A stretch of DNA of 24,464 bases, taken from NCBI GenBank assembly GCA_043744135.1, contig JAYTVG010000281.1:1-24464 (forward strand), given 5' to 3'. This document shows, piece by piece, positions 6,724 through 19,260 of this stretch. The translations under genes and the position numbers were made by a program. The stretch is from Deltaproteobacteria bacterium. GTDB lineage: Bacteria > Myxococcota > UBA727 > VGSZ01. How positions within the stretch are numbered: position 1 is the stretch's first letter; each line of letters opens with the position of its first letter. Below the pieces are notes generated by a model, which saw nothing but the letters and a program-made list of their open reading frames with translations, was not told the origin of the DNA and searched no databases.

Positions 6724-6754
6724 AAAAAAACGGGGACGCTGCGAAGCGCCCCCG
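6724..6754 (-). terminator. Rho-independent terminator of the SctF-like gene
   Basis: On the minus strand: ACGGGGGCGCTTCGCAGCGTCCCCG stem-loop followed by TTTTTTT, about 24 nt after the stop at 6778. Confidence 0.85.
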
Positions 6755-6777
6755 TCGTTGGCCGCTTGAATGTCGCG

Positions 6778-7332
6778 CTAGCGGACGTTTGAAATTGAGC
6801 TCTTGGCGGTATCGTGCTTGGTCTTCATAACGTTTGACACGGTGGTGAATGAGCGGTTTTCCATCTGCATCTTTTCCTGCAGCTGCAAGTATTGCAGGTT
6901 GAAGCTCGCCATCATCTCCTGCATGTCCTTGGTCTGATTCAGCATGTCTTGCTGGCTACTGCCCGAAGACTTGGTGCCCGTGTTGCTCGATAGACCGGGG
7001 CCACCCAGCGGAATCCCGTCAGCACCAGACGCGCCTGACGCGCCGCCTGCACCACCACCGCCGCCAACTCCGTAGCCGCCGCTGCTGCCGCCGCCGCCGC
7101 CGCCCAATGAACCTGCAGCGCCGGTGACCGCCGCCGACACCACTGCTGCGCCGGGAACAAACGGCGCCGCGACGCCAATGGCGGCGCCCGCGGTGCCCGC
7201 ACCAGCGGACACGCCGTTTCGGACCTGCGCGCCGAAATCGGTGCGCGGGGATTGGCGCACCGTGGTGCTACCGCTGTCGAGCTGGATCCCACCGCGGGTC
7301 GATCCGTTTCCATCAATGTTTGTGACTGCCAT
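6778..7332 (-). CDS. Putative T3SS needle-subunit (SctF/PrgI)-like protein, 184 aa, with hydrophobic hairpin and Gly-rich N-terminal extension
   Basis: GGAG RBS before ATG 7332. The last 34 aa (LQEKMQMENRSFTTVSNVMKTKHDTAKSSISNVR) align without gaps to the recalled PrgI C-terminal helix (YQSKLSEYNLYRNAQSNTVKVFKDIDAAIIQNFR), with 10 identities including the terminal I-x-N-x-R. Confidence 0.68.
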   Translation of the reverse strand: MAVTNIDGNGSTRGGIQLDSGSTTVRQSPRTDFGAQVRNGVSAGAGTAGAAIGVAAPFVPGAAVVSAAVTGAAGSLGGGGGGSSGGYGVGGGGGAGGASGASGADGIPLGGPGLSSNTGTKSSGSSQQDMLNQTKDMQEMMASFNLQYLQLQEKMQMENRSFTTVSNVMKTKHDTAKSSISNVR

Positions 7333-7444
7333 GGCGAACTCCGTTTCGTTGTGGCGCATGCTGCGTGGCAGGCGCCGAATTTGCTAAAAAGTTCGAGTGT
7401 TAAAAATCCCGGTAGGGGCGCTCAACAGCTCTTTTCAAGTTCGA

Positions 7445-7473
7445 TTATCGCTGGACGGTAGCGGGCGTTGCGC
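7445..7473 (-). promoter_or_regulatory. Bipartite promoter-like motif GCGCAACGC-N13-GCGATAA upstream of the SctF-like gene
   Basis: Plus strand reads TTATCGC (7445-7451), a 13-nt spacer, then GCGTTGCGC (7465-7473). Identical boxes and spacing occur at 18672-18700. Confidence 0.7.
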
Positions 7474-7498
7474 TTGCGGCGTGCGGGATCGCGTCAGA

Positions 7499-7837
7499 TC
7501 AGCCGGTTGACCCAGCGCCCATGCCGGCTTTGGTCGCCAAAAGGTGCGACACCAGCGCCTGCGTCTTGTCGTAGGCTTTGAGCGCGCGTTGTGCAGCCGC
7601 TTTGTCTTTCGGGGATTTGGCGGATTTGGCCAACTGCGCGAGCTGGCTCGAGCGGGCCTTAAGTCCCGCTAACGCCGCTTCGCCGTTTTGCTCGACGACG
7701 GCTTCGATGGCCGGAAACCCTGCCGAGGCCGCAGGTGCAGCAGGGGCGGCCACTTTCGGCCGGCCATCGACGGTCTTTTTGACCGCGTCTTGGATCTTAA
7801 ACGCCTTCATGGCGTCGTTGCGTTTGCCGTCAGGCAT
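7499..7837 (-). CDS. Small basic helical protein, possible YscE/PscE-like needle chaperone
   Basis: GGAG RBS before ATG 7837; overlaps the upstream stop by 8 nt. C-terminal QRALKAYDKTQALVSHL resembles the recalled YscE segment QRESKALESAIAIIHYV. Lies directly upstream of the SctF-like gene. Confidence 0.5.
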   Translation of the reverse strand: MPDGKRNDAMKAFKIQDAVKKTVDGRPKVAAPAAPAASAGFPAIEAVVEQNGEAALAGLKARSSQLAQLAKSAKSPKDKAAAQRALKAYDKTQALVSHLLATKAGMGAGSTG

Positions 7838-8834
7838 GACTGCTCCAAAACCGTGAGAAGCCACCGTACGACAGACCCATGCCAGCGGCCAGCGTCACAT
7901 ACAAGCCAAAGCGGATCTGCAGCTGGCTTTCGACGGTGCGCTGAAGCCCGTACACCACGAGGAGGTAGGCACACAGCACAGTCGAAGCAGCACCGATCAG
8001 CAAGTGCCACAGCGAGGTGCGCCGCGACGCTTGTAGCTGTTCGCGCTGCGACGAGCGCCCCACGCTGCTATCGAGCACGCGGCGCGCCCGCCCCACCAGC
8101 AGCGCCACCGCGGCGCACGCCAGCGCAGCATGCAGCACGCCCCCCGAAACCAGCCCGATTTGAAACGGGTGGGCGCGGTCCGAGATCCACGGCAGCAGCG
8201 TGCCCACCAAGGTGAGCAGCGCCGACAGGAACGTGACCTTGTCCGACGGTTGCCACACCCGCCAGCCCTGGCGCAGATCGCGCAGCAGCTCTTCGACTTC
8301 GCCCGCGACTGCGTCGAGCAGGCTGGGGGCTGCAGGGCTTGGTGCGTGCGGCACCGTGTGGTCGGGTGCTGGGCGGCGCGCGCGACGGCGTTCATCGCCC
8401 GAGGGGTCGTCGCCGATCGGGCGCGGGCGGGCGCGGCGCTCGCGATCGCCCGACGGGTCATCGCCGAGCGGTCGGTTGCGCAAGCGCCGTTCCCCCGACG
8501 GGTCGTCGCCGATGGGGCGGCGCTTGCGATCATCCCCCGAGGGGTCGTCGCCGATGGGGCGGCGCTTGCGGTCGTCGCCGGGCTCGTCAGGACGACGTCG
8601 TGCTTCGCGCTGCGCCGACAGCTCACGCGACATCGCTTCGGATTTTTGTTGGAGCTCACTTTGATGTCGTTGCGCTTGGGCATCGCGCGTCACACCGCTC
8701 GTGCCACGCTCGGGTGGACGCTCGGGCGAACGCTCGGGTGGACGCTCGGGTGGACGCTCGGATGGACGCTCCGGTGGACGCTCCGGTGGACGCTGTGAAG
8801 CGCGGTCCGGGCCTTTTTGCTGCGGCGGAGGCAT
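7830..8834 (-). CDS. Membrane protein with repeat-rich charged N-terminus and about 4 C-terminal TM helices
   Basis: MPPPQQK start. PPER-type repeats and RRPIGDDPSG-type repeats, then TM segments (VTFLSALLTLVGTLLPW; GLVSGGVLHAALACAAVALLVG; LWHLLIGAASTVLCAYLLVVYG; RFGLYVTLAAGMGLSYGG). Confidence 0.75.
   Translation of the reverse strand: MPPPQQKGPDRASQRPPERPPERPSERPPERPPERSPERPPERGTSGVTRDAQAQRHQSELQQKSEAMSRELSAQREARRRPDEPGDDRKRRPIGDDPSGDDRKRRPIGDDPSGERRLRNRPLGDDPSGDRERRARPRPIGDDPSGDERRRARRPAPDHTVPHAPSPAAPSLLDAVAGEVEELLRDLRQGWRVWQPSDKVTFLSALLTLVGTLLPWISDRAHPFQIGLVSGGVLHAALACAAVALLVGRARRVLDSSVGRSSQREQLQASRRTSLWHLLIGAASTVLCAYLLVVYGLQRTVESQLQIRFGLYVTLAAGMGLSYGGFSRFWSSHA
8395..8575 (-). repeat. 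Four copies of the coding repeat unit RP(I/L)GDDPSG(D/E)
   Basis: Plus strand repeats of GG(G)TC(G/A)TCGCCGA with (C/T)GGG(G/C)CG flanks; protein reads RPIGDDPSGD, RPIGDDPSGE, RPLGDDPSGD, RPIGDDPSGD. Confidence 0.85.
8706..8794 (-). repeat. 12-bp tandem coding repeat (PPER/PSER/SPER, about 7 units)
   Basis: Units of GCTC(G/C)GGTGGAC and variants on the plus strand. Confidence 0.85.
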
Positions 8835-8995
8835 GCGGCTATCGTTTCGCCCTCCAATCCGCCCGTCAAGGGATCGCGAGCTGTGCTCGCGCGCGCCATC
8901 GAGCCACCAGCACGGTCCGCTCGCGACCCGCGTGTGTCGTTGTGACGCGGGTTTCGTGGCTCGACGACACCTTTGCACGCGGCACGCAGCGTTCT

Positions 8996-10936
8996 ATGCG
9001 ACGCGCTGTGACCGCTACTGCCACCCCATCTGTCGCTAGCTACCAGGTGTTGGCGCGCAAGTACCGGCCTCAGACGTTTGAGGACGTCGCTGGACAAAGC
9101 AACGTGGTGTTGACGCTCAAGCGCGCGCTTGAAACTGGCCGCGTGGCACATGCGTTTTTGTTCACTGGCAGCCGTGGGGTGGGCAAGACCACGCTCGCGC
9201 GCATCTTGGCCCGCTGCTTGGTGTGCGCGACCGGCCCGACAGCGACGCCGTGCGGGGTGTGCAATCTGTGCATGGGTGTGCAGTCGGGGGCGCTGACCGA
9301 CGTCGTGGAGATCGACGGCGCCTCGAACAACTCGGTGGATCAGATCCGCGACTTGCAGGAGATGGCGCGGTTTTTACCGCAGTTGGCGCGCGTCAAAATT
9401 TTCATCGTGGACGAGGTCCACATGCTGTCCACGAGCGCGTTTAACGCCTTGCTGAAGATCTTAGAGGAGCCGCCACCGCATGTGAAGTTCATCTTCGCGA
9501 CCACAGAACCGCACAAGATCCCCGTCACCATCTTGTCGCGCTGTCAGCGCTACGACTTTAAGCGCCTGCCGCAAAAGACCATTGTGGCGCGCCTCAAACA
9601 CGTGCTCGCTCAGGAGCACACCAGCGTGTCGGACGCCGGCATCGAGGTCATCGCGCACGCCGCTGAGGGTGGCATGCGCGATGCCCTGAGCTTAACCGAC
9701 CAGGTGTTGAGCTTCGCGGGGGCAAACGCATCCGCACAGCAGGTGGCTGAAGCGCTCGGCATCATCGATCGGCGCAGCGTGGTGGCGGCGGTCGAAGCTG
9801 TGCTCGCTGGCGATGCCAAAGCAGCACTCGACATTGTGCACGCCGCGCACGCGAGCGGACATGATTTGCGGCAGCTGCTCAGCGGCGTCGCGCAAGAGTT
9901 GCGGCATTTGTGCGTCGCCAACGCCACCGGCACCATTTTGGGGCTGGCGGATCTGACGCCTGAAGACAGCGCCCACATCGACGCGCGCGCGCGCACCCTC
10001 GACAGCAAAGATTTGCTGCGTGTGCTGGCGATGACGCTCGATGGCATGGATCCACTCGCGCGCGCAGAAGATCCGCGGTTACACCTTGAGTTGGTATTGC
10101 TGCGCATCTGTCGTCGCGCACCGCTTAGTGAAGCCCTCGCGATCAGCGAAGCTATCGTGCGGTTGGAGGCGCTGAAGGCCGGCAAGCCCGTGCCACCGCT
10201 CGCACAGCTGCGACCGCTCGACATCGTGCGCGCCGCCTTGGCGCCCGCCCCAACAGCGCCCACCCCAACAGCGCCCGCCCCCACAGCGCCCACCCCAAGG
10301 GCGCCCGCGCCAACAGCGCCCACCCCAACAGCGCCCGCCCCCACAGCGCCCGCCCCCACAGCGCCCGCCCCCGTCGTGGCGGCGGTCGGCGAAGATCCGC
10401 CCTGGGTTGTCGACGAGGTGCCGGCGGGCCGTGCCTCGGTTGTGCGTGCGCAACCGCCAAAGCCCTTTGAATCAAACCACGACGCTGACGAGGTGGACGA
10501 AGGCATCGATCCTGCTGCGGGCCTGCCGTTACTCGGGGTGGACGCGCGCTTTATCGCCTTTGTCGACGCCACCGCGAAAAGCAACCGCCCACTTGCAATG
10601 CACCTCGACCAGGCCCGCGTGGTGTCGACGAACGACAGCGCGGTGCGCGTGGGCTTTGTCCGCGACCTGCACGAGCGAGCGCTGGCGCCGGCGTTGCTCG
10701 ATGCGGTGTTGTTGGCGGACCTGCGCGCGGCCTACGGCGCGGCTGTGACGCTGGAAATCGTCAAGCTCATCGACGGGACTGCCGCCGCCCCGTCGATGGC
10801 AGAGGCGCGCACCGCAGCCCTGGCGGCGGCGCAAGCGGCGCTCGAAGCGCACGCCAAATCGCATCCCGTGGTCGCCAAAGCGGTGGCGTTATTTGGTGGC
10901 CCAGTGCGTTCGGTGGTGCGCAAGGGCATCGCTTGA
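8996..10936 (+). CDS. dnaX: DNA polymerase III subunit gamma/tau
   Basis: YQVLARKYRPQTF, Walker A GSRGVGKTT, Zn site C..C...PCGVCNLC, DEVHMLS, SRCQRY, EGGMRDALSL. Start at 8996 or GTG 9008. Confidence 0.97.
   Translation: MRRAVTATATPSVASYQVLARKYRPQTFEDVAGQSNVVLTLKRALETGRVAHAFLFTGSRGVGKTTLARILARCLVCATGPTATPCGVCNLCMGVQSGALTDVVEIDGASNNSVDQIRDLQEMARFLPQLARVKIFIVDEVHMLSTSAFNALLKILEEPPPHVKFIFATTEPHKIPVTILSRCQRYDFKRLPQKTIVARLKHVLAQEHTSVSDAGIEVIAHAAEGGMRDALSLTDQVLSFAGANASAQQVAEALGIIDRRSVVAAVEAVLAGDAKAALDIVHAAHASGHDLRQLLSGVAQELRHLCVANATGTILGLADLTPEDSAHIDARARTLDSKDLLRVLAMTLDGMDPLARAEDPRLHLELVLLRICRRAPLSEALAISEAIVRLEALKAGKPVPPLAQLRPLDIVRAALAPAPTAPTPTAPAPTAPTPRAPAPTAPTPTAPAPTAPAPTAPAPVVAAVGEDPPWVVDEVPAGRASVVRAQPPKPFESNHDADEVDEGIDPAAGLPLLGVDARFIAFVDATAKSNRPLAMHLDQARVVSTNDSAVRVGFVRDLHERALAPALLDAVLLADLRAAYGAAVTLEIVKLIDGTAAAPSMAEARTAALAAAQAALEAHAKSHPVVAKAVALFGGPVRSVVRKGIA
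10241..10373 (+). repeat. 15-bp tandem repeat encoding a (P-T-A-P-T/A)n linker in DnaX
   Basis: About 9 units of CC(C/A)ACAGCGCCC(G/A)CC giving APAPTAPTPTAPAPTAPTPRAPAPTAPTPTAPAPTAPAPTAPAP. Confidence 0.9.
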
Positions 10937-11697
10937 CAGACGTCGCACACGACCGGCACGTCCACGCGCTGTCGTCGACGGTGGTGGTGTTGGTGCGTAC
11001 GGAGGGGCCGTTAAACGTCGGCAGTGTGGCGCGGCTGTGTGGCAATTTCGGTTGTGGTCTGCGCTTGGTCGACGTCAGCGCTGACACCACGAGCAAACAC
11101 GCGGTGATGATGGCGCACCCGGCCGAACAGGTGCTGCTGCAAGCGCAGCGGTTCGCTACGCTTGATGAGGCGCTGCGCGATGTGGACGCGTCGATCGGCA
11201 CGTCGTCAAAGATCGTGGATGCGCGCGATGGGCCGGTGTTTGACGTCGCGCGCGCGCGCGGGTTTTTGCCGGCGGCAGGCTGCACGGTGGCGGTGGTGTT
11301 TGGCAATGAGCGCACGGGCCTGAGTGTGGGCGAGGCTGCGTGCTGCACGCGCTTGGTGAAGCTACCGACACCGGGCACAAACGACAGCTTGAACCTCAGT
11401 CACGCGGTGGCGTGTGTGTTGACGCTGTTGGCGCAAGCGCAACGCGACAGCGCCACCGACGTTACCAGCGCGCCGCGAGCTGCTGCTGACGCGCGCGCCG
11501 TGTTGGTGACGCAGTGGCTGGCTGCGCTCGAGCTGCGCGGTTATTTTAAAGCACAACGGCCTGAGCGGTTTTTGCCGAGGCTGCGCGAGATCGTGGACAA
11601 GATGGACATCAGCGACCGCGACGTGGTGTTGCTGCGTGACATGCTGCATGTGTTGGCGCACGGCGCCGCACCCAAACAAGAGCGCGCGCATGGCTGA
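10933..11697 (+). CDS. trmJ: SPOUT RNA methyltransferase, TrmJ/LasT family
   Basis: VVLVRTEGPLNVGSVARLCGNFG, AVVFGNERTGLS, PTPGTNDSLNLSHAV; TTG start overlaps the dnaX stop. Confidence 0.85.
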   Translation: MTDVAHDRHVHALSSTVVVLVRTEGPLNVGSVARLCGNFGCGLRLVDVSADTTSKHAVMMAHPAEQVLLQAQRFATLDEALRDVDASIGTSSKIVDARDGPVFDVARARGFLPAAGCTVAVVFGNERTGLSVGEAACCTRLVKLPTPGTNDSLNLSHAVACVLTLLAQAQRDSATDVTSAPRAAADARAVLVTQWLAALELRGYFKAQRPERFLPRLREIVDKMDISDRDVVLLRDMLHVLAHGAAPKQERAHG

Positions 11698-13222
11698 CGC
11701 AGCAGCAGCGACGCCCGCGCAACATGACATCGTGTTGTGCACGATGAACGCCAAGTGGGAGCATGCCAGCTTTGGCTTGCGGTGTTTGATGGCGAATTTG
11801 GCGGAGTTGTCGTCGTGCGCGGTGATGATCGAGCGCACCATCCACGACCGCGCCAGCGACATCGCGGAGGAGATCTTAAGCTACCGGCCGAAGATCGTCG
11901 GCATTGGCGTGTACGTGTGGAACGCGGTGTTGGCGCTCGAAGTCGTCACGATCCTCAAACGCGTGCTTCCCGACCTGCACGTGGTGATTGGCGGGCCTGA
12001 GGTCAGCCATGAAGTCGACGCGCAAGACATCGTGACGCGTGCGGACTACGTCGTCACCGGTGAAGCCGATGTGGCCTTCATGCAATTGTGCACCAAGTTG
12101 CTGGCGGGTAAAAAGCCGCTGCTTAAGCGCATTGACGCCGGCAAACCCGAGCTGCACGCGCTGCAATTTCCCTACGCGCTGTACACCCACGACGACCTGC
12201 ACAAGCGCATCTTGTATGTGGAGGCGTCGCGCGGCTGTCCGTTTACCTGCGAGTTTTGCCTCAGCGCCCTGGACGACGGCGTGCGCACGTTCGCGCTTGA
12301 GGCGTTTTTGGCGCAGATGCAAACACTGCTTGAGCGTTTTGTCGGTGGGCGCTTGATGCTGAAGTTTGTCGATCGCACTTTCAACATGAAGATCGACGAC
12401 AGCGCTAAGATCTTGGAGTTTTTTTTGGCGCGCATGCGGCCCGGGCTGCATTTGCATTTCGAGATGATCCCCGACCGCCTGCCCGAACGCCTGCGCAGCT
12501 TGCTCGGGAAATTTCCTGCCGGCACGGTGCAGTTGGAGGTCGGCATCCAAACCCTCGATGTCGACGTCAGTAAACGCATCGCACGCAAACAAGACGTCGC
12601 ACGCATCGCCGACAACTTGGCGTTTTTGAAGCAGCACACCGGCGTGCACGTGCATGCCGACCTCATCGTCGGGCTGCCCGGTGAGTCGCTCGCGATGTTT
12701 GGCGCCGGCTACGACCAGCTGTACCGATGGCAACCTGAAGAGATCCAAGTCGGCATCTTGAAGCGGCTGCGCGGCACGCCGCTGCGACGTCACGACGGCA
12801 TTATGCGCTACACCGACACGCCGCCGTACGAGGTGTTGTGCACCGATGCGCTCGATTTTGTCGACGTGCAACGCCTCAAACGTTTCGCGCGCTACCACGA
12901 CGTGGTCGCCAACAGTGGACGTTTCAAGGCCGTCAGCGCGCTGTTGTTTGGCGACGCACCGTTTGCGCACTTCTTGGCGTTTTCCGATTGGCTGTGGCGC
13001 ACCACGCGCGCGACCTCTGGCATCGCGCTGTCGCGGTTGGCGCGCTTGCTCACTGAATTTTTGGTGAGCGAGCGCGGTGTGGCGGCCGAGGTGGTCGCGC
13101 ACGCCATGGAGCTCGACATCGGCCGCGACCGCATGGCGTCGCTGGTGGCCGACGACGCTGCGGGTGCTGTGAGCACCGCCCCGCGGCTGCCCAAGCGCCA
13201 AGCGCGTCACGTGATGCCTTAG
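11690..13222 (+). CDS. B12-binding-domain radical SAM protein (DUF4080-like)
   Basis: N-terminal cobalamin-binding domain (PKIVGIGVYVWN, VVIGGPEVS), YVEASRGCPFTCEFCLS (CxxxCxxC), DLIVGLPGE, LKRLRGT. Confidence 0.92.
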   Translation: MADAAAATPAQHDIVLCTMNAKWEHASFGLRCLMANLAELSSCAVMIERTIHDRASDIAEEILSYRPKIVGIGVYVWNAVLALEVVTILKRVLPDLHVVIGGPEVSHEVDAQDIVTRADYVVTGEADVAFMQLCTKLLAGKKPLLKRIDAGKPELHALQFPYALYTHDDLHKRILYVEASRGCPFTCEFCLSALDDGVRTFALEAFLAQMQTLLERFVGGRLMLKFVDRTFNMKIDDSAKILEFFLARMRPGLHLHFEMIPDRLPERLRSLLGKFPAGTVQLEVGIQTLDVDVSKRIARKQDVARIADNLAFLKQHTGVHVHADLIVGLPGESLAMFGAGYDQLYRWQPEEIQVGILKRLRGTPLRRHDGIMRYTDTPPYEVLCTDALDFVDVQRLKRFARYHDVVANSGRFKAVSALLFGDAPFAHFLAFSDWLWRTTRATSGIALSRLARLLTEFLVSERGVAAEVVAHAMELDIGRDRMASLVADDAAGAVSTAPRLPKRQARHVMP

Positions 13223-13343
13223 GCAGCGCTAGCGAGCGTTCGAAATTTAATCGCGCGGCGCGGCTACTTCTTCGCCCGGCCGTTTGCGCGCACCGTGCAC
13301 AAAAGCCGAGACGGCGCCGCACCGTTGAAGCATCATCGCGTGC

Positions 13344-13955
13344 ATGAAGGTGGCGTCAGTCGTCGTGGGCTTTGCAGCGCTGTCGGTCGCGTTGACGGCG
13401 CTTGGCTATGCCGCCGCGCGCGTCGGGCCACCACCACCCGCAAACGTGCTGGCGGCGGCGGCGCGACCCGCGGCCCTAACCGCACCACCTCCACCGCAAG
13501 CACCGACGTCGGACGCAGACCGTGACGCAGACCGGCGCGCACCGCTGCTGCCCGCGCTGTTTGTGGTCCAAAACGCCACTGCAAAAACGCAAATCGTGCT
13601 GGCGGGCCCACGGGCAAAGCCGCTGTTGTTGCACCTGTGGGCGTCGTGGTGCGGGCCGTGCCGTGCGGAATTGCCGGCGCTATTGGCATTTCACGGTCCC
13701 GCCGAGGTGCTGGCGGTGACGGTGGACGACCGTTTTGACGACGTCATGGCATTTTTTGGCGGCAACATCCCCGCGCAAGTGGCGTGGGACAGCACCATCT
13801 CGTTGGAGCGTGCGCTTGGGGTGCACAGCATCCCGACGACGTTTTTGATCGACACTGCAGGGCGCGTGATCGATCGCTACGATGGCGCTCAAGCGTGGCA
13901 GCAGCCGGCGATGGTGGAGGCGGTGCGGGAGGCGCTCGCGCCGCACATCCGTTGA
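13344..13955 (+). CDS. TlpA-family thiol:disulfide reductase, membrane-anchored
   Basis: LHLWASWCGPCRAELP and GVHSIPTTFLID; N-terminal hydrophobic anchor. Confidence 0.92.
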   Translation: MKVASVVVGFAALSVALTALGYAAARVGPPPPANVLAAAARPAALTAPPPPQAPTSDADRDADRRAPLLPALFVVQNATAKTQIVLAGPRAKPLLLHLWASWCGPCRAELPALLAFHGPAEVLAVTVDDRFDDVMAFFGGNIPAQVAWDSTISLERALGVHSIPTTFLIDTAGRVIDRYDGAQAWQQPAMVEAVREALAPHIR

Positions 13956-13985
13956 CGCTGGGCACGCAATGCCTCACGTGGTCGC

Positions 13986-14402
13986 ATGCCATTGTTTGAA
14001 TACCGCTGCGGCGCCTGCCGCCACTTGGAAGAGCTCCTGCAAAAGCACGGTGACGTCGCCCCAGAGCGCTGCCCGGCTTGCAAAAAGAAGGGGACGATGA
14101 CCAAGGAGATCAGCCTGACGTCGTTTCAGCTCAAAGGCGGCGGCTGGTACAAAGACCTGTATGCATCAACGCCCGCTGGCGGTGCAGACAGCGGCACGGA
14201 TGGCGCCAGCGACGGCAAAAGCGACAGCAAAAGCGACAGCAAAAGCGACGGCAAAAGCGACGGCAAAAGCGACAGCCCGACGACGAAAGCGGACGCGAAG
14301 CCTGCGGCCGACGCTGCGAGCAAGAGCACCGGCTCGGACAAAAAAGCCAACGCGAGCAAGCCCACCGCCAAAAAGGCCAAAGCCCGCAAACGCGCGAGCT
14401 GA
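13986..14402 (+). CDS. FmdB-family zinc-ribbon protein with Ser/Asp/Lys-rich low-complexity tail
   Basis: MPLFEYRCGAC...CPAC...FQLKGGGWY; the tail has 12-bp repeats (SDGK/SDSK). Confidence 0.9.
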   Translation: MPLFEYRCGACRHLEELLQKHGDVAPERCPACKKKGTMTKEISLTSFQLKGGGWYKDLYASTPAGGADSGTDGASDGKSDSKSDSKSDGKSDGKSDSPTTKADAKPAADAASKSTGSDKKANASKPTAKKAKARKRAS

Positions 14403-14405
14403 GCG

Positions 14406-15086
14406 CTACGGACAGGCCCCGCTCGCGAACACCGCTTCGCAGTTGCGTTCGTCGTCGAGGGTGACGGTGACGGGGCCGGTGCCGGTGCCGCAGATCCGCC
14501 AACCACAAAACGTCGAGCCGGCAGCGGCTGTGGCCGTGAGGGTGTCGCTTTCGTCGGCGAAGTAGCCCGCTTGGCAGTCGCCGTTGCCGTCGGTGCTGCA
14601 GTCAATGCGCGGCGTGCCGTCGTTGCGCAGCGCGGCGCTGGTGACGTTGCCGATGCCGAGGTCGGCTCCGTTTGGGGCCGAAAACACCACCAACAACGTG
14701 TGCAGTTGGCGGAAGTTGGCAGTGCATACGATCTCGTCTCCCTCATCGTCGTTCGGCAGCGCCGCCACAATCGACGCGTCTTGGGTGTTGCGCTCGGGGT
14801 TGCCATTTTTGGTGCAGGCCCAGCCGCCAAACAGCGCATCGCGGGCGGCCTCGGCCACCAGCACCACGTTGCCACCGATGGCGAAGTCGCGCGCTGCGTC
14901 GGTGCAGTCGGTGCTGCAGTCGATGCCCTCGGGGTCAGAGACAACGCCGCCGAGGCCATCGCCACCTTTGACAACGGTGACGCGCAAGGCTTTGGTGTCC
15001 ACGTGCGGGCCATCTGACGGGTTCGACGGTGGTGCGCACGCGAGCGTGCACGCGGTCCCAAACAACATCGGCAACAGCTTTGACAT
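14406..15086 (-). CDS. Lipoprotein with two divergent InlB B-repeat-like, Cys-containing domains
   Basis: MSKLLPMLFGTACTLAC signal. Two units of type V..G.G.V.S...GIDC...C....V.L.A.A..(D/G)S.F.GW..C. Confidence 0.72.
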   Translation of the reverse strand: MSKLLPMLFGTACTLACAPPSNPSDGPHVDTKALRVTVVKGGDGLGGVVSDPEGIDCSTDCTDAARDFAIGGNVVLVAEAARDALFGGWACTKNGNPERNTQDASIVAALPNDDEGDEIVCTANFRQLHTLLVVFSAPNGADLGIGNVTSAALRNDGTPRIDCSTDGNGDCQAGYFADESDTLTATAAAGSTFCGWRICGTGTGPVTVTLDDERNCEAVFASGACP

Positions 15087-15177
15087 CGACGCAGTGTAGG
15101 TGATGTCGAAGCGCTGCAACATCCGCCCATGCACGGTTGTGTGCTGTTGGTGCTGCGGGTTTGCTAAGGTCGCGTCC

Positions 15178-17475
15178 ATGTCCACGTACTGCCGCTTCAC
15201 GTTGTCGCTCGCGTTTGTCTGCGTCCAAGCCGGCTGCACCAGCTGCGGGGCTGGGCCGCAACCGTTTGCAGCAGGTGAGGGCGAAGGCGAGGGTGAGGGT
15301 GCGGGCGAAGGTGAGGGTGAGGGTGAGGGCGAGGGCGAGGGTGAGGGTGAGGGCGAACGTGATGCGGGGCCGCCGCCGCTGGATGTGTTCGGCCTGGACG
15401 ACCGCCCGACCAACACCACCTGCACGGCACCGCCACCGCCGCCCGCGGGCACTGGCGAGGTGGCCTTGGTGCAGCGTTGGCCCGACCTGCAAGTGTCGCG
15501 GCCGGTGTTCATGCTGCAAGAGCCTGGCACCAACCAAATCTACGTCGTGGAGCAAGCGGGCCGGTTGGTGCGCTTTGACAAAGACGACACCGCGGTCACC
15601 GTGCCGCAAGAGATGTTGAACATCACCGGGCCTGTCACCTTTGGCGGTGGCGACGGCAGCGAGGACGGCCTGCTGGGGATGGCGTTTCACCCGCAGTGGC
15701 CTGACGTCGCTGACGTGTTCGTGTTTTACACCACCGCTGACGACAGCATCGATCGCGTGGCGCGTTTCCCGCTCGGTGGCGACGGCACCTTTGACGAGAC
15801 CGCGCAGGAGATCGTGCTCGACATCGACGACTTCGCCTCCAACCACAACGGCGGCATGATCCGCTTCGGCACCGACGGCTATTTGTACATCGGCACCGGC
15901 GACGGCGGTGCCGGTTTCGACCCGTTTGAAAACGGCCAAGACGGCTTGAGCCTACTCGGCAAAATGCTCCGCATTGACGTCGACAACCCGCAAAATGGTA
16001 ACGCCTACGGCATCCCGCTGGACAACCCGTTCGTCGGCAACGCTGCGTTTGCTCCCGAGGTGTGGGCGCGTGGTTTGCGCAATCCCTGGCGCTGGAGCTT
16101 TGATGCGTTCACGGGAGATCTATGGGTGGGCGACGTCGGGCAGGTGCGCTGGGAAGAAATCAACATCGTCGAGCGCGGCGGCAACTACGGCTGGGACGTG
16201 TTTGAGGGCACGGAGTGTTTAGATGACACCTCAGGGCCCTCGGGTCCGTGCGATTTGGGCGGCACCAAACCACCGGTGACGACGTATTTTCACGACAGCG
16301 GCCGCTGTGCTGTGGCGGGCGGTAACGTCTACCGCGGCAGCGCCTATCCCGAGTTTGAGGGTAAGTATTTTTTCGGCGACCACTGCTCAAGCGAAGTGTT
16401 CGCGCTGGAATTTGACGGCGAGGTGGGCACCGGGGTGGAGGTCGCCAACAACGGCAACAACGTTGATGCGTTTGGCGAAGACGCGGACGGCGAGCTGTAT
16501 GTCATCTCCACGCCGGGTGGCACCATCGAGCAGATCACGCGATCGACAGACCCCGCCATCGACAACTTTCCGCAGACGTTGTCGGCCACCGGGTGCATGG
16601 ACGCTGTCGACACCACCCAGCCCGGCCCCGGCCTCATCCCGTACACCGTCGCGCACGCGTTTTACTCCGACGGTGCCGACAAGGAGCGCTTCATGGCGCT
16701 GCCCGAGGGACAAAACGCGATCGTCGACGCGACGACGGGCGACATCGACTTTCCTGTCGGCACGGTGTTTGTGAAGACGTTTCGCGTGGCGGGGCAGTTG
16801 GTGGAGACGCGGTTGTTTATCCGCCATTCGCAAGATCAATGGGGCGGCTATTCTTATGAATGGAACGATGCTGGCACCGATGCGACGCTGCTGCCCGCCG
16901 CCAAAAACAAGACGCTCAATAGCGGCCAGACGTGGTCGTATCCCGCGCGCAACGCCTGCCTGACGTGTCACACCGCGGCCGCCGGTCGCAGCTTGGGGCT
17001 TGAGGTGCCGCAACTTAACGGCGGTTTCACGTATCCCTCGGGGGTGTTCGCCAACCAACTCGCCACGCTCGATCACATCGGCGTGCTGAGCTTGCCCGCA
17101 CCTGTCGACACGCTGCCGGTGTTTGCCGCCATTGATGCCGATGGCTTTTCGATTGAGGCGCGCGCGCGCGCGTACCTGCACGTGAACTGTTCGAGCTGCC
17201 ATCGACCCGGCGGCATCGGCCAAGGTCCGTCCGACCTGCGGTTTCAAACGGCGTTTGGCGACATGGCGATCTGCGACCGCACACCGTCGGAGGGCGACTT
17301 TGGCATCGCTGACGCGCGCGTGTTTGCGCCGCAAGATCCGTCACGCTCAATGTTGTCGGTGCGTATGCACCGCCTGGGCGCGGGACGCATGCCGCTGCTC
17401 GGCAGTAACGTCGTCGACGCGGCGGGCGCCGCCTTGGTCGACAGCTGGATCGTGCAAACGACGACGTGCCCGTAG
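15178..17475 (+). CDS. Exported PQQ-dependent sugar dehydrogenase (GSDH/YliI-like beta-propeller) fused to a C-terminal diheme c-type cytochrome domain
   Basis: Signal peptide with Cys, GE repeat. EDGLLGMAFHP, NHNGGMIRFGTDGYLYIGTGDGG, GKMLRIDVD, GLRNPWRWSFD, WEEIN, GGNYGW. Two CxxCH motifs (CLTCH, CSSCH) and RMPLLG. Confidence 0.88.
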   Translation: MSTYCRFTLSLAFVCVQAGCTSCGAGPQPFAAGEGEGEGEGAGEGEGEGEGEGEGEGEGERDAGPPPLDVFGLDDRPTNTTCTAPPPPPAGTGEVALVQRWPDLQVSRPVFMLQEPGTNQIYVVEQAGRLVRFDKDDTAVTVPQEMLNITGPVTFGGGDGSEDGLLGMAFHPQWPDVADVFVFYTTADDSIDRVARFPLGGDGTFDETAQEIVLDIDDFASNHNGGMIRFGTDGYLYIGTGDGGAGFDPFENGQDGLSLLGKMLRIDVDNPQNGNAYGIPLDNPFVGNAAFAPEVWARGLRNPWRWSFDAFTGDLWVGDVGQVRWEEINIVERGGNYGWDVFEGTECLDDTSGPSGPCDLGGTKPPVTTYFHDSGRCAVAGGNVYRGSAYPEFEGKYFFGDHCSSEVFALEFDGEVGTGVEVANNGNNVDAFGEDADGELYVISTPGGTIEQITRSTDPAIDNFPQTLSATGCMDAVDTTQPGPGLIPYTVAHAFYSDGADKERFMALPEGQNAIVDATTGDIDFPVGTVFVKTFRVAGQLVETRLFIRHSQDQWGGYSYEWNDAGTDATLLPAAKNKTLNSGQTWSYPARNACLTCHTAAAGRSLGLEVPQLNGGFTYPSGVFANQLATLDHIGVLSLPAPVDTLPVFAAIDADGFSIEARARAYLHVNCSSCHRPGGIGQGPSDLRFQTAFGDMAICDRTPSEGDFGIADARVFAPQDPSRSMLSVRMHRLGAGRMPLLGSNVVDAAGAALVDSWIVQTTTCP
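15274..15357 (+). repeat. (Gly-Glu)n coding microsatellite
   Basis: GG(T/C)GA(G/A) hexamer about 14 times with one GA unit: GEGEGEGEGAGEGEGEGEGEGEGEGEGE. Confidence 0.95.
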
Positions 17476-17508
17476 TCGACGTCGGGCGCTGGGGTAAGCA
17501 AATACGCG

Positions 17509-18531
17509 TTACGCGCTTTTAAACTGCACCGGCAGCAACACACCGCGCGCCTTGAGCTGTTGTTTGACCCACGCTTTGATCGTCGTCGCTGGGTAGGTAC
17601 GGTCCGGGCGGATACCAACCTCGACGCGCGGCCCTTTGACGCGCACGCTCATGACCGCGTCTTCGATGCAGCGGTCGCGTGTGCTCCTTGCTTGCGCGGT
17701 TTTAACCGCCGCTGCAAACGTCGCCACCACGTCTTTCATGGTCGGGGGCGGCACGAACGTGGCGGTGTCGATGACGATGTGACGGGGTTTGACGCCCAAC
17801 TCCGCGCATAGGCTGCGCACGGCGGCTACGATATCAGCGTCGCTGCGCTGGGCGGGCTGGCGCACGCTAACGCGCAGCGCGTCGCCGTCTACGCGCAAAC
17901 CAACAACCTCTTGGTGCGGGTTTGCTGTGCTGCCGGCGCGCGCCATCAGCTGCGCGGCATCAAACAAGCGCTGCGCGTCGGCGCTGCACAGTGGTGGCGG
18001 CGGATCGGCGCGCTTGAGGTGGACGCTGAGTGCAGCACCCCCAGCAGCAGCGATCAGCGGGGCACAGCGCGTGCGCACATCGACGTCGCTCAAGACAGCG
18101 TCCGCGTCGATCACGACCTGCACGGTTTTGGCATCGACAGCTTCGACGTGGCTGATGCCTTCAAGGCGTCGCGCGTCGCTGCGATCGGCGCTGAGCGCGG
18201 CATTGACCTCCGCGGCGACGGCGCGCGCCTCTCCCGTCGTCAATAGCTCCAGTCGAGCGCCTTCGGGCACGCCGCACGCTTGCAGCAGGGCGCGCGTAGC
18301 GTCGCGGATGGCGCCGCGCGAAAACAGCGCATGCGCGTCGATAGTGGCGAGCACAGCGCCGTCGTGCACGTGCAGGCCGCGGATGCAGCGTTGCACCGCA
18401 TCGGGGTCGTTTTTGAAGCTGGTGATGCGCAGCAGCGCCTGCGCGACCGCCGCACGCAAGGTGTGCGGATCGACGGTCACAGCCACTGCGACCGGCCATC
18501 TGCGCTGCGGACTAGGGTGGTTTGTGCCCAT
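17509..18531 (-). CDS. Hypothetical protein with four tandem about 75-85 aa alpha/beta modules
   Basis: Long ORF, probable start ATG 18531. Each module reads helix, strand, strand, helix, strand. Confidence 0.6.
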   Translation of the reverse strand: MGTNHPSPQRRWPVAVAVTVDPHTLRAAVAQALLRITSFKNDPDAVQRCIRGLHVHDGAVLATIDAHALFSRGAIRDATRALLQACGVPEGARLELLTTGEARAVAAEVNAALSADRSDARRLEGISHVEAVDAKTVQVVIDADAVLSDVDVRTRCAPLIAAAGGAALSVHLKRADPPPPLCSADAQRLFDAAQLMARAGSTANPHQEVVGLRVDGDALRVSVRQPAQRSDADIVAAVRSLCAELGVKPRHIVIDTATFVPPPTMKDVVATFAAAVKTAQARSTRDRCIEDAVMSVRVKGPRVEVGIRPDRTYPATTIKAWVKQQLKARGVLLPVQFKSA

Positions 18532-18671
18532 CGCGAGCGACACGCTAGCGCTGTTGAGACGTGTCGTGGCTAAAAACGGCGCGCGCTGGCACACCGGCAA
18601 GCGGATCGCGGGCACCGTAACGCTTGATGTTTACGTGGCTTTGCGGGCGGGTCGACGCCGTACGATCCCGC

Positions 18672-18700
18672 GCGCAACGCGCCGCGCCAGCCTGCGATAA
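18672..18700 (+). promoter_or_regulatory. Bipartite promoter-like motif GCGCAACGC-N13-GCGATAA upstream of the SctI-like gene
   Basis: GCGCAACGC 18672-18680, 13-nt spacer, GCGATAA 18694-18700; ends 35 nt before the ATG. Same as 7445-7473 on the minus strand. Confidence 0.7.
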
Positions 18701-18735
18701 CCTCGCAGTACAGTGTTTTTGCGCAGGAGCATCCC

Positions 18736-19260
18736 ATGGTAGATCCCGTCTCAGGTGGCATCGGCAAAGCCAGCCAACAAATGATGCAAGAGCTCCAAAA
18801 GGAGATGCAAAAAGGCCAAGACCAAGTCGGTAAGCCGGGCTTTAACGACACGATGGCGCAGCAAGTCAACCAGACCCAAGGCGTGCAGCACACGCAGGGG
18901 ATCCAGCCTGTACAAGAAGCGCAAAAGGTCAACGAGGCCACCAAAGCTGCCGACGTTCTGCGCACCGCACAAAGCCAAAGCGTGCAAGGCGTCAACCCGG
19001 ACACCGGCGTCAAGCCGATCGAAAAAAAGGCCGAGTCCAAAGAGGCGGGCCTCAAGGCCGTGCTCAACCAGGTGGTCGACGGACAAAACAAGCTCGACGA
19101 CATCATCAAGATGGCCACCAGCGGCAAGGTGTACGGCAACCAACAGCTGCTGGCGATTCAAGCCTCGGTCTACAAGTTCAGCCAAGAGCTCGATTTGACG
19201 TCGAAGGTGGTGGAAAAAGCCACCAGCGGCGTCAAGCAGACCATGCAGACCCAGGTTTAA
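18736..19260 (+). CDS. Putative T3SS inner-rod protein (SctI/YscI/HrpB2-like)
   Basis: AGGAG RBS. Gln-rich, likely disordered N-terminus. C-terminal QQLLAIQASVYKFSQELDLTSKVVEKATSGVKQTMQTQV matches the recalled SctI/HrpB2 C-terminal pattern (L..Q.......ELx.K...K....V..L). Confidence 0.75.
   Translation: MVDPVSGGIGKASQQMMQELQKEMQKGQDQVGKPGFNDTMAQQVNQTQGVQHTQGIQPVQEAQKVNEATKAADVLRTAQSQSVQGVNPDTGVKPIEKKAESKEAGLKAVLNQVVDGQNKLDDIIKMATSGKVYGNQQLLAIQASVYKFSQELDLTSKVVEKATSGVKQTMQTQV

Follow-up and report, generated by a model that had tools for sequence, protein, structure and literature searches.

What are three small genes with the look of type III secretion system (T3SS) genes doing among housekeeping genes, and what keeps them in step with a secretion apparatus that is nowhere near them? 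The genes lie in a stretch of 24,464 nucleotides, hereafter the window, which is the whole of contig JAYTVG010000281.1 of a Deltaproteobacteria bacterium (assembly GCA_043744135.1; Myxococcota, UBA727, VGSZ01). A sequence-only reading of the window had likened their products to the needle subunit SctF, the chaperone YscE and the inner-rod protein SctI, and had proposed a split T3SS coordinated by a dedicated sigma factor. Our analysis indicates that the three genes are probably parts of a Myxococcota-wide conserved module of the secretin-less myxobacterial T3SS*, scattered in this genome, and the interpretation as a split T3SS with sigma-coordinated rod- and needle-like genes is largely supported. 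All three open reading frames (ORFs) are present with the ends that the reading gave them.

6778..7332, minus strand: P0001 (P0001/P0123), gene at the SctF position, 184 aa, with a GGAG ribosome-binding site
7499..7837, minus strand: P0002, 112-aa helical protein at the yscE position, directly upstream of P0001
18736..19260, plus strand: P0003, SctI-like gene, 174 aa

The inner-rod-type protein and its conserved module

P0003 is homologous to the rod/needle superfamily, and we count this as shown; it is very likely a divergent homologue of SctI, the inner-rod protein. From its N-terminus on, the protein has a conserved motif, a variable middle rich in Gln and a C-terminal region of ~70 aa that is almost invariant. 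A search at E <= 0.001 returned 530 homologues, most of which carry a precomputed PF09392 match, while some are mis-named “helicase HrpB”. P0003 itself matches PF17001 (E 0.026, 15.4 bits; curated cut-off 32.4) and the SctI model NF038054 (E 0.0096, 16 bits; cut-off 39), and these matches make the likeness to SctI measurable, with both below the curated cut-offs. PF17001 was also the commonest family match in the P0003 family, being found below threshold in 29 of 40 members (best E 0.0035), with FliE matched by two. Protein language-model neighbours are clusters of PF09392, HrpB2, NolB and FliE. The taxa of such neighbours, together with source names of homologues such as “Deltaproteobacteria bacterium”, put the window in Myxococcota.

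The almost invariant C-terminus allows a finer comparison. In ungapped alignments, the P0003 C-terminal profile gives a single peak against MxiI (+21.5 at shift -2, next best +6) and scores +10 at shift -1 against YscI; its peak is against the rod MxiI, not the needle MxiH. Profile comparisons of the P0003 family with YscI and YscF returned probabilities below 1%. The AlphaFold2 (AF2) model of P0003 is poor (predicted local distance difference test, pLDDT, 50) and shows two helices at the C-terminal end; its top Foldseek match is 8axk_P, from the Shigella complex of export gate, rod and needle, at a non-significant E of 2.6. For M. xanthus, SctI is one of the components that a review gives for mxan_2434-2464 (PMC10433427).

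Gene order points the same way. A P0003-type gene lies immediately 5' of sctJ in many genomes, among them the Myxococcus-like closed genome G114, whose two copies are at both of its known T3SS loci. In the window, P0003 stands alone, with no sctJ adjacent.

The distribution of the genes was followed in 201 genomes of the phylum, a sample that includes one unpublished genome, G184, on which no specific claim rests. The P0001 family occurs in 161 of these (about 80%), the P0003 family in 157 and this type of SctJ in 177, whereas one comparative study places the myxobacterial T3SS mainly in Myxococcales (PMC10196010). Tallies for P0001, P0003 and SctJ match closely from one taxonomic family to the next; in family f14, all three stand at 55 of 60. 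Families f25 and f30 are missing both small-protein families, and their SctJ matches are weak (E 1e-14 to 1e-17) and are possibly to flagellar FliF. Where both occur, P0001- and P0003-family genes are usually 0-3 kb apart on the same strand.

The synteny comparison with related Myxococcota that the sequence-only reading had suggested shows the module clustered in G114. One locus begins with a 112-aa-type gene, a P0001-type gene, a small TPR gene, a 131-aa gene, a FliA-type sigma gene and a P0003-type gene, and goes on with sctJ, a FliG-like gene, sctL/fliH, sctN, a run of ORFs that includes sctU and, further on, sctV; within that run, the R, S and T assignments come from ORF sizes only. Here 1.6 kb separate the P0001/P0003 pair, and sctV is 20 kb away. 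At the second locus, P0001-type, P0003-type and sctJ genes follow one another without gaps, with sctV also close by. These orders are collinear with yscE-yscF-yscG-yopR-lcrO(sctI)-yscJ-yscK-yscL on pCD1 and with mxiH-mxiI-mxiJ on pCP301. The F position, between E-type and G-type partner genes and upstream of sctI-sctJ, is held by the P0001-type gene in G114, G110 and G082.

A sigma-28-type promoter-like motif and a FliA/WhiG-type sigma factor

P0001 and P0003 lie 11.4 kb apart on opposite strands. The sequence-only reading had noted an upstream motif common to the two genes, and a scan of the 4.87-Mb assembly sharpens the observation: the full form, CGCAACGC-N13-GCGATAA, has exactly two copies in the genome, one upstream of each gene.

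18673..18700, plus strand: sigma-28-type motif copy 1, CGCAACGC-N13-GCGATAA, ending 35 nt before the P0003 ATG
7445..7472, minus strand: sigma-28-type motif copy 2, in the gap between P0002 and P0001, 112 nt before the ATG at 7332

The shorter form GCAAC-N15-GCGATAA is likewise present twice in the window (7445-7471, minus strand; 18674-18700, plus strand) against about 0.12 expected from shuffles, and two matches were reached in 2 of 100 shuffles. Beyond this genome, many others throughout the phylum have GCAAC-N15/16-(G/C)CGATAA upstream of genes of the P0001 and P0003 types; in G114 it precedes the P0001-type gene.

Aligned on its -10 element, the motif reads GCAACGCx-n11-xGCGATAA; its spacing, 8-n11-8, equals that of the E. 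coli sigma-28 consensus, TAAAGTTT-n11-GCCGATAA (PMC2859248). The -10 copies in the window are aGCGATAA and tGCGATAA, and relatives often have GCCGATAA itself. The resemblance to flagellar control by FliA thus extends over the -10 element, the spacing, axial-type targets and, as described below, a sigma factor of the same family (TIGR02479). It stops at the -35 element, which is GCAAC throughout the phylum rather than the TAAA of sigma-28, and at the system itself, which is non-flagellar.

A candidate to read the motif is encoded on another contig (C527, 2351-3262, minus strand), between genes for an aldolase, a hydrolase and a Ser/Thr kinase; its best family match is the FliA/WhiG model TIGR02479 (E 3.5e-46). 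In about 20 of the loci that we fetched, a FliA/WhiG sigma gene lies directly 5' of the P0003-type gene. The proposal of a dedicated sigma factor therefore gains considerably from the comparison: such a gene sits in the same conserved module, and a motif with sigma-28 geometry recurs phylum-wide. Two results tell against it. The C527 protein scores 157.7 bits, below the TIGR02479 cut-off of 189.6, and no FlgM-like anti-sigma factor, which flagellar control has, was recognised among the small proteins of the module. Because no such protein was recognised, a flagellar-style checkpoint would be speculation. We nevertheless consider it likely that P0001- and P0003-type genes are co-regulated from sigma-28-type promoters, with the motif presumably used by the FliA-like factor.

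Looser forms of the motif in this genome fall mostly inside genes or 5' of unrelated ORFs, and only the copies on contigs C802 and C753 look comparable. The C802 copy, a third good GCAAC-N15-GCGATAA (L010:1949-2408), lies just 5' of a possible further member of the regulon, a gene whose 129-aa product is hydrophobic, rich in Gly and without a Pfam match; a 171-aa unknown follows it. A fourth, at C753:111, extends past the end of its contig.

The protein at the needle position

Whether P0001 is a needle subunit is the harder question. The family has at least 220 homologues, none of which has a Pfam family. Its N-terminal region is conserved and contains a hydrophobic Gly/Ala-rich stretch at residues ~45-72, followed by a variable Gly-rich linker; the C-terminus is an invariant helix of ~55 aa whose last residues are ...SNVR. 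It is this helix that resembles needle subunits. Aligned without gaps and anchored at the end, the P0001 C-terminus scores against MxiH with z 4.1-4.5, a score reached by 0 of 5000 shuffles, and register 0 is the only one of 25 with a positive score (+21). The same comparison gives z 3.0-3.8 with YscF and nothing with the rods MxiI and YscI. The P0001 profile fits MxiH and the P0003 profile fits MxiI, each in an end-anchored register; this sets the first family apart as needle-like and the second as rod-like, in line with the sequence-only reading.

Beyond its own family, the language-model neighbours of P0001, which we treat as leads only, are a PF09392-bearing cluster (0.88), HrpA (0.80), HrpE (0.79) and SctF (0.78), and HrpA_pilin is matched by 2 of 40 family members (E 0.00049). 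A profile of the C-terminal 62 residues, searched exhaustively, returned 3126 representative clusters. Among the best 150 of these, whose protein lengths range from 55 to 386 aa, the domain runs to the protein's last residue in 149 and ends one residue short in the other. Look-ups of clusters with distant family members gave uninformative names. A tblastn search of plasmids with the P0001 C-terminus found no needle gene and only one orphan, a 138-aa hypothetical protein on plasmid NZ_CP087141.1 of a Spirosoma sp., a member of the Bacteroidota (L093:14752-15168). The orphan contains the C-terminal domain of the P0001 family, at 42% identity over 55 aa (E 1e-6), and adjoins a transposase.

The small gene before P0001 keeps its place but not a recognisable identity. 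Homologues of P0002 occupy the same position in four relatives' loci (L014, L064, L065 and L066; 43-53% identity), and a 26%-identical one does so in G114, so that the place directly 5' of the P0001-type gene is retained as far as the Myxococcus-like genome. A word-based search with P0002 found only the query itself, and the homologues surfaced through synteny. Neither PDB nor Pfam gave a match; at 112 aa, the protein is also longer than YscE (66 aa). Because P0002 resembles neither YscE nor any family known so far, “YscE-like” is a positional label only: of the earlier assignment, the place stands and the sequence likeness does not. That P0002 is a chaperone is a tentative suggestion from its position.

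A substantial set of results runs counter to the assignment of these proteins to needle, chaperone and rod. PF09392 matched neither P0001 nor 40 of its relatives at E values up to 1, and over the whole genome it found nothing even at E 10. P0001, at 184 aa, is over twice as long as the needle subunits of Yersinia and Shigella (83-87 aa). Its AF2 model (pLDDT 50) contains a helix at residues 33-51 and one long C-terminal helix at 126-181, rather than a hairpin, and the PxxP turn of the needle hairpin is absent. Profile comparison gave probabilities below 1% for the P0001 family with the P0003 family and for the P0001 C-terminus with YscF, and hhalign gave a probability of 0.1 for P0002 with YscE. 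Hidden Markov model (HMM) searches of PDB sequences with the P0001, P0002 and P0003 families returned noise only. The SctI, SctJ and FliA scores are all below curated cut-offs. The TPR protein that adjoins P0001 homologues scores best as LcrH/SycD, a class of translocator chaperones, and no T3SS gene lies within 15 kb of the Spirosoma orphan. Structure searches, which the sequence-only reading had put forward as a check, gave the non-significant 8axk match for P0003 and no Foldseek match for P0001.

Some of these negatives carry less weight than others. Profile comparisons against a single-sequence template of YscF or YscI are uninformative, because the P0003-YscI pair failed as well, and the Foldseek results for P0001 and P0003 are of little weight because the models have a pLDDT of about 50. 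What stands of the SctF-like assignment is the sctF position, the co-occurrence and the end-anchored C-terminal similarity; what fails is the Pfam model and the structure searches. On balance we favour, by a modest degree, a needle-type axial subunit as the putative function of P0001.

We propose the following model. In its clustered form the module comprises a membrane protein, the 112-aa protein, the P0001-type protein, an LcrH/CdsG-like TPR chaperone, a small protein, the FliA-type sigma factor, the P0003-type protein and SctJ, followed by a FliG-like gene, sctL and sctN, an order collinear with yscE-F-G-H-I-J-K-L. P0001 would most likely be an enlarged, divergent axial subunit of the SctF type, in which the long C-terminal helix is the polymerising element and the hydrophobic, Gly-rich N-terminal part is specific to the lineage; P0002 would be its small partner, its chaperone role suggested by position. 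P0001-type and P0003-type genes would each have their own sigma-28-type promoter, presumably read by the FliA/WhiG-type factor of the module (C527 here). Each gene would then be a self-contained unit under the same sigma factor, and the genes could therefore move away from each other without losing their co-expression. The T3SS* as a whole has become scattered in this order of Myxococcota, and housekeeping genes now separate the two units in the window. Taken to its full extent, the model makes the P0001 family the missing needle-type subunit of the “needleless” T3SS*, with a hydrophobic, Gly-tethered insert, polymerising on top of SctI either within the periplasm or where the cell touches its prey; its gene and that of SctI would be late genes controlled by a FliA-type sigma factor kept from the flagellar ancestor, and this per-gene sigma-28 wiring would have allowed the scatter seen in some orders of Myxococcota. 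We regard this complete version as plausible, at somewhat less than even chances.

The TPR protein is where a different account of P0001 starts. Its scores (LcrH/SycD E 3.6e-12, SctY 1.1e-7, CdsG 1.7e-6; the copy in this genome is on C646) place it ahead among chaperones of translocators; BLASTP of the same protein found no match to YscG. P0001 could be a membrane-active substrate exported by T3SS*, a mini-translocator or tip-like protein rather than a needle, with P0003 still SctI and with the same regulation and scatter. The Gly/Ala-rich segment would insert into a membrane, the class-II-like TPR protein would chaperone P0001, and the C-terminal helix would only dock onto the rod. The conserved hydrophobic stretch and the Gly-rich linker after it fit such a protein, as do the missing PF09392 match, the lack of a hairpin in the model and the great variation of the N-terminal parts and protein lengths. 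The gene, however, occupies the sctF position and not that of a translocator gene, the MxiH match is end-anchored in a unique register, and the language-model leads are filament subunits, not translocators. We judge this account unlikely. The failure of every library HMM and structure search for P0001 and P0002, together with the C-terminal domain homologue on a Bacteroidota plasmid that has no T3SS gene within 15 kb of it, could even mean that the two are small conserved envelope proteins unrelated to type III secretion that lie near T3SS* in some genomes. Against this stand the presence and absence tallies, which track SctJ and the SctI-like family closely over the 201 genomes, the two paralogous pairs at both T3SS loci of G114 and the promoter in common with the SctI-like gene, and we consider it highly improbable.

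Dispersal of the system and its relation to known T3SSs

The sequence-only reading had described subunit genes that left a core cluster. In agreement with it, Pfam searches of the long ORFs found no core T3SS gene in the window, and a search for SctV, SctJ, SctN, SctU and SctR found all five elsewhere in the genome: SctV on C449 and C457, SctJ on C202, SctU on C266 and C914, SctR on C107 and SctN on C137. The rod- and needle-like genes do stand apart from the core; yet no core cluster remains from which they could have split, and the whole system is scattered. The single sctV gene of the genome lies between genes for a TPR protein and an AI-2E transporter upstream of it and, on the other side, GT4 with pilB-pilT-pilC-pilS-pilR (C449, C457; L004, L005:10926-19977). 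The TPR chaperone gene on C646, with its 124-aa-type partner, has a 602-aa unknown gene on one side and a gene for a hexosaminidase on the other. A search for flagellin found none in the assembly, which is 86% complete.

A fragmented and possibly chimeric metagenome assembly could, in principle, make a normal T3SS cluster look dispersed. The window (C281) is the longest contig of a metagenome-assembled genome of 4.87 Mb in 1119 contigs with a median of 3.3 kb, and sctV and sctU are each split over two contigs. Within single contigs, however, T3SS genes have non-T3SS neighbours, as is the case for sctV, for the sigma gene between metabolic genes and a kinase, and for the window. Relatives with better assemblies are just as scattered. 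In G082, a genome of the same family in 20 contigs, sctV, sctU and the F/I genes (the P0001- and P0003-type pair) are on three contigs, with sctJ and sctN 75 kb apart on a fourth; taken together, G082, G119 and G033 have sctV, sctJ, sctN, sctU and the F/I genes either on separate contigs or at distances of 75-200 kb. G119, G033 and G110 show the same scatter of T3SS* genes and have a separate flagellar-type cluster as well. Because these better-assembled relatives are equally scattered, fragmentation alone is insufficient as an explanation, and we give an assembly artefact very little credence. The scatter of the system is very likely genuine.

Within the family, distances between F-type and I-type genes vary. 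One genus has them 4-9 kb apart; in three genomes that belong to two other genera, they are on separate contigs. None of the window's housekeeping neighbours recurs at relatives' loci.

The closest known systems are the M. xanthus T3SS* (mxan_2434-2464) and T3SS(2) (mxan_5643-5654), the secretin-less “Myxo” non-flagellar T3SS of Abby and Rocha (2012), which share the SctJ, SctV, SctN, SctU, SctR and SctI families with this genome. P0001-like and P0003-like genes are found at both loci of the Myxococcus-like complete genome; unlike the single 30-kb cluster of M. xanthus, the genes are scattered here and across the whole order sampled. With Yersinia and Shigella (mxiG-mxiH-mxiI-mxiJ), the clustered myxobacterial genomes share the order of needle, rod and SctJ genes, and have a TPR chaperone after the F-position gene. 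They differ in the sigma gene inserted between the H and I positions and in secretin, tip and translocon genes, none of which was seen in the myxobacterial system. A functional non-flagellar T3SS spread across several loci is known from Chlamydia (PMC3459982). The scatter is common to the CdsE/F/G loci of Chlamydia, and the TPR protein matches CdsG weakly; Chlamydiae, however, have a different T3SS family and keep multi-gene sub-clusters and a secretin, whereas several core genes here occur singly, with neighbours of unrelated function.

Among non-flagellar T3SSs, the myxobacterial T3SS* branches earliest, and prey lysis depends on it. It has been described as secretin-less and needleless, with SctF lost, and the description without a needle therefore leaves the export route out of the cell open (PMC3459982, PMC10433427, PMC12075869). 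In the literature that we covered, from which the original 2022 T3SS* paper was absent, we found no mention of the P0001 family or of a FliA-type sigma factor in the T3SS* locus. The P0001 family is a candidate for the “missing” needle, which makes the “needleless” question directly testable. For M. xanthus the analysis provides three handles: an sctF-position family with a needle-like C-terminus, the FliA-type sigma gene of the locus and the sigma-28-type promoter at the rod and needle positions. Components of the Myxo type are widespread yet scattered outside Myxococcaceae, and detection tools that rely on clusters probably miss such genes.

Two further features flank the P0001 and P0002 genes.

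6729..6756, minus strand: strong intrinsic terminator closing the P0001 gene, 12-bp stem with 8 GC pairs, then a T run
7830..8660, minus strand: conserved membrane protein gene upstream of P0002; 5' limit uncertain, the ORF extends to 8978

The P0002 ATG overlaps the stop of the membrane-protein gene by 8 nt (ATGCCTGA), and the membrane protein is 48-65% identical to the product of the same-position gene in three relatives' loci (L014, L065 and L066). Read from its most upstream start (window 8100-8978, minus strand), the ORF would encode an N-terminus with repeats, both Pro/Glu/Arg-rich ones and ones of the form GDDPSG...RRP. A relative's protein, which is shorter, lacks these repeats. It is uncertain which start is the true one, and the extended form overlaps an upstream extension of the dnaX frame.

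The sequence-only reading had named dnaX, trmJ, a radical SAM gene and TlpA between the three genes; Pfam gave dnaX, a SpoU methylase, a B12/radical-SAM protein and a redoxin. The other long ORFs of the window encode accC/accB, MATE, TPR, GT2, zinc ribbon, GSDH, OPT and PP-loop proteins.

Genomes as small as 0.3-2.5 Mb belong to the order of the window genome (family f2). Several of those of 1.3-2 Mb keep a Myxo-type sctJ and weak P0001/P0003-type genes, which the smallest genomes are without. The separate cluster in three genomes of the same order (G119:C9:346101-381210, G033:C18:668419-685635 and G110:C47:17799-35100) is a second, clustered T3SS with a FliF-type protein of 536-545 aa, and looks like a flagellar-type locus beside the scattered T3SS*.

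FliG was listed by Abby and Rocha among the proteins missing from Myxo systems. FliG-like domains occur in the gene directly 3' of the Myxo-type sctJ, both in this genome (FliG_M, E 6e-7; C202, L003:1-671, minus strand) and in G114, where the 774-aa product matches FliG_C with an E value of 5e-6 (L060:15436-17760).

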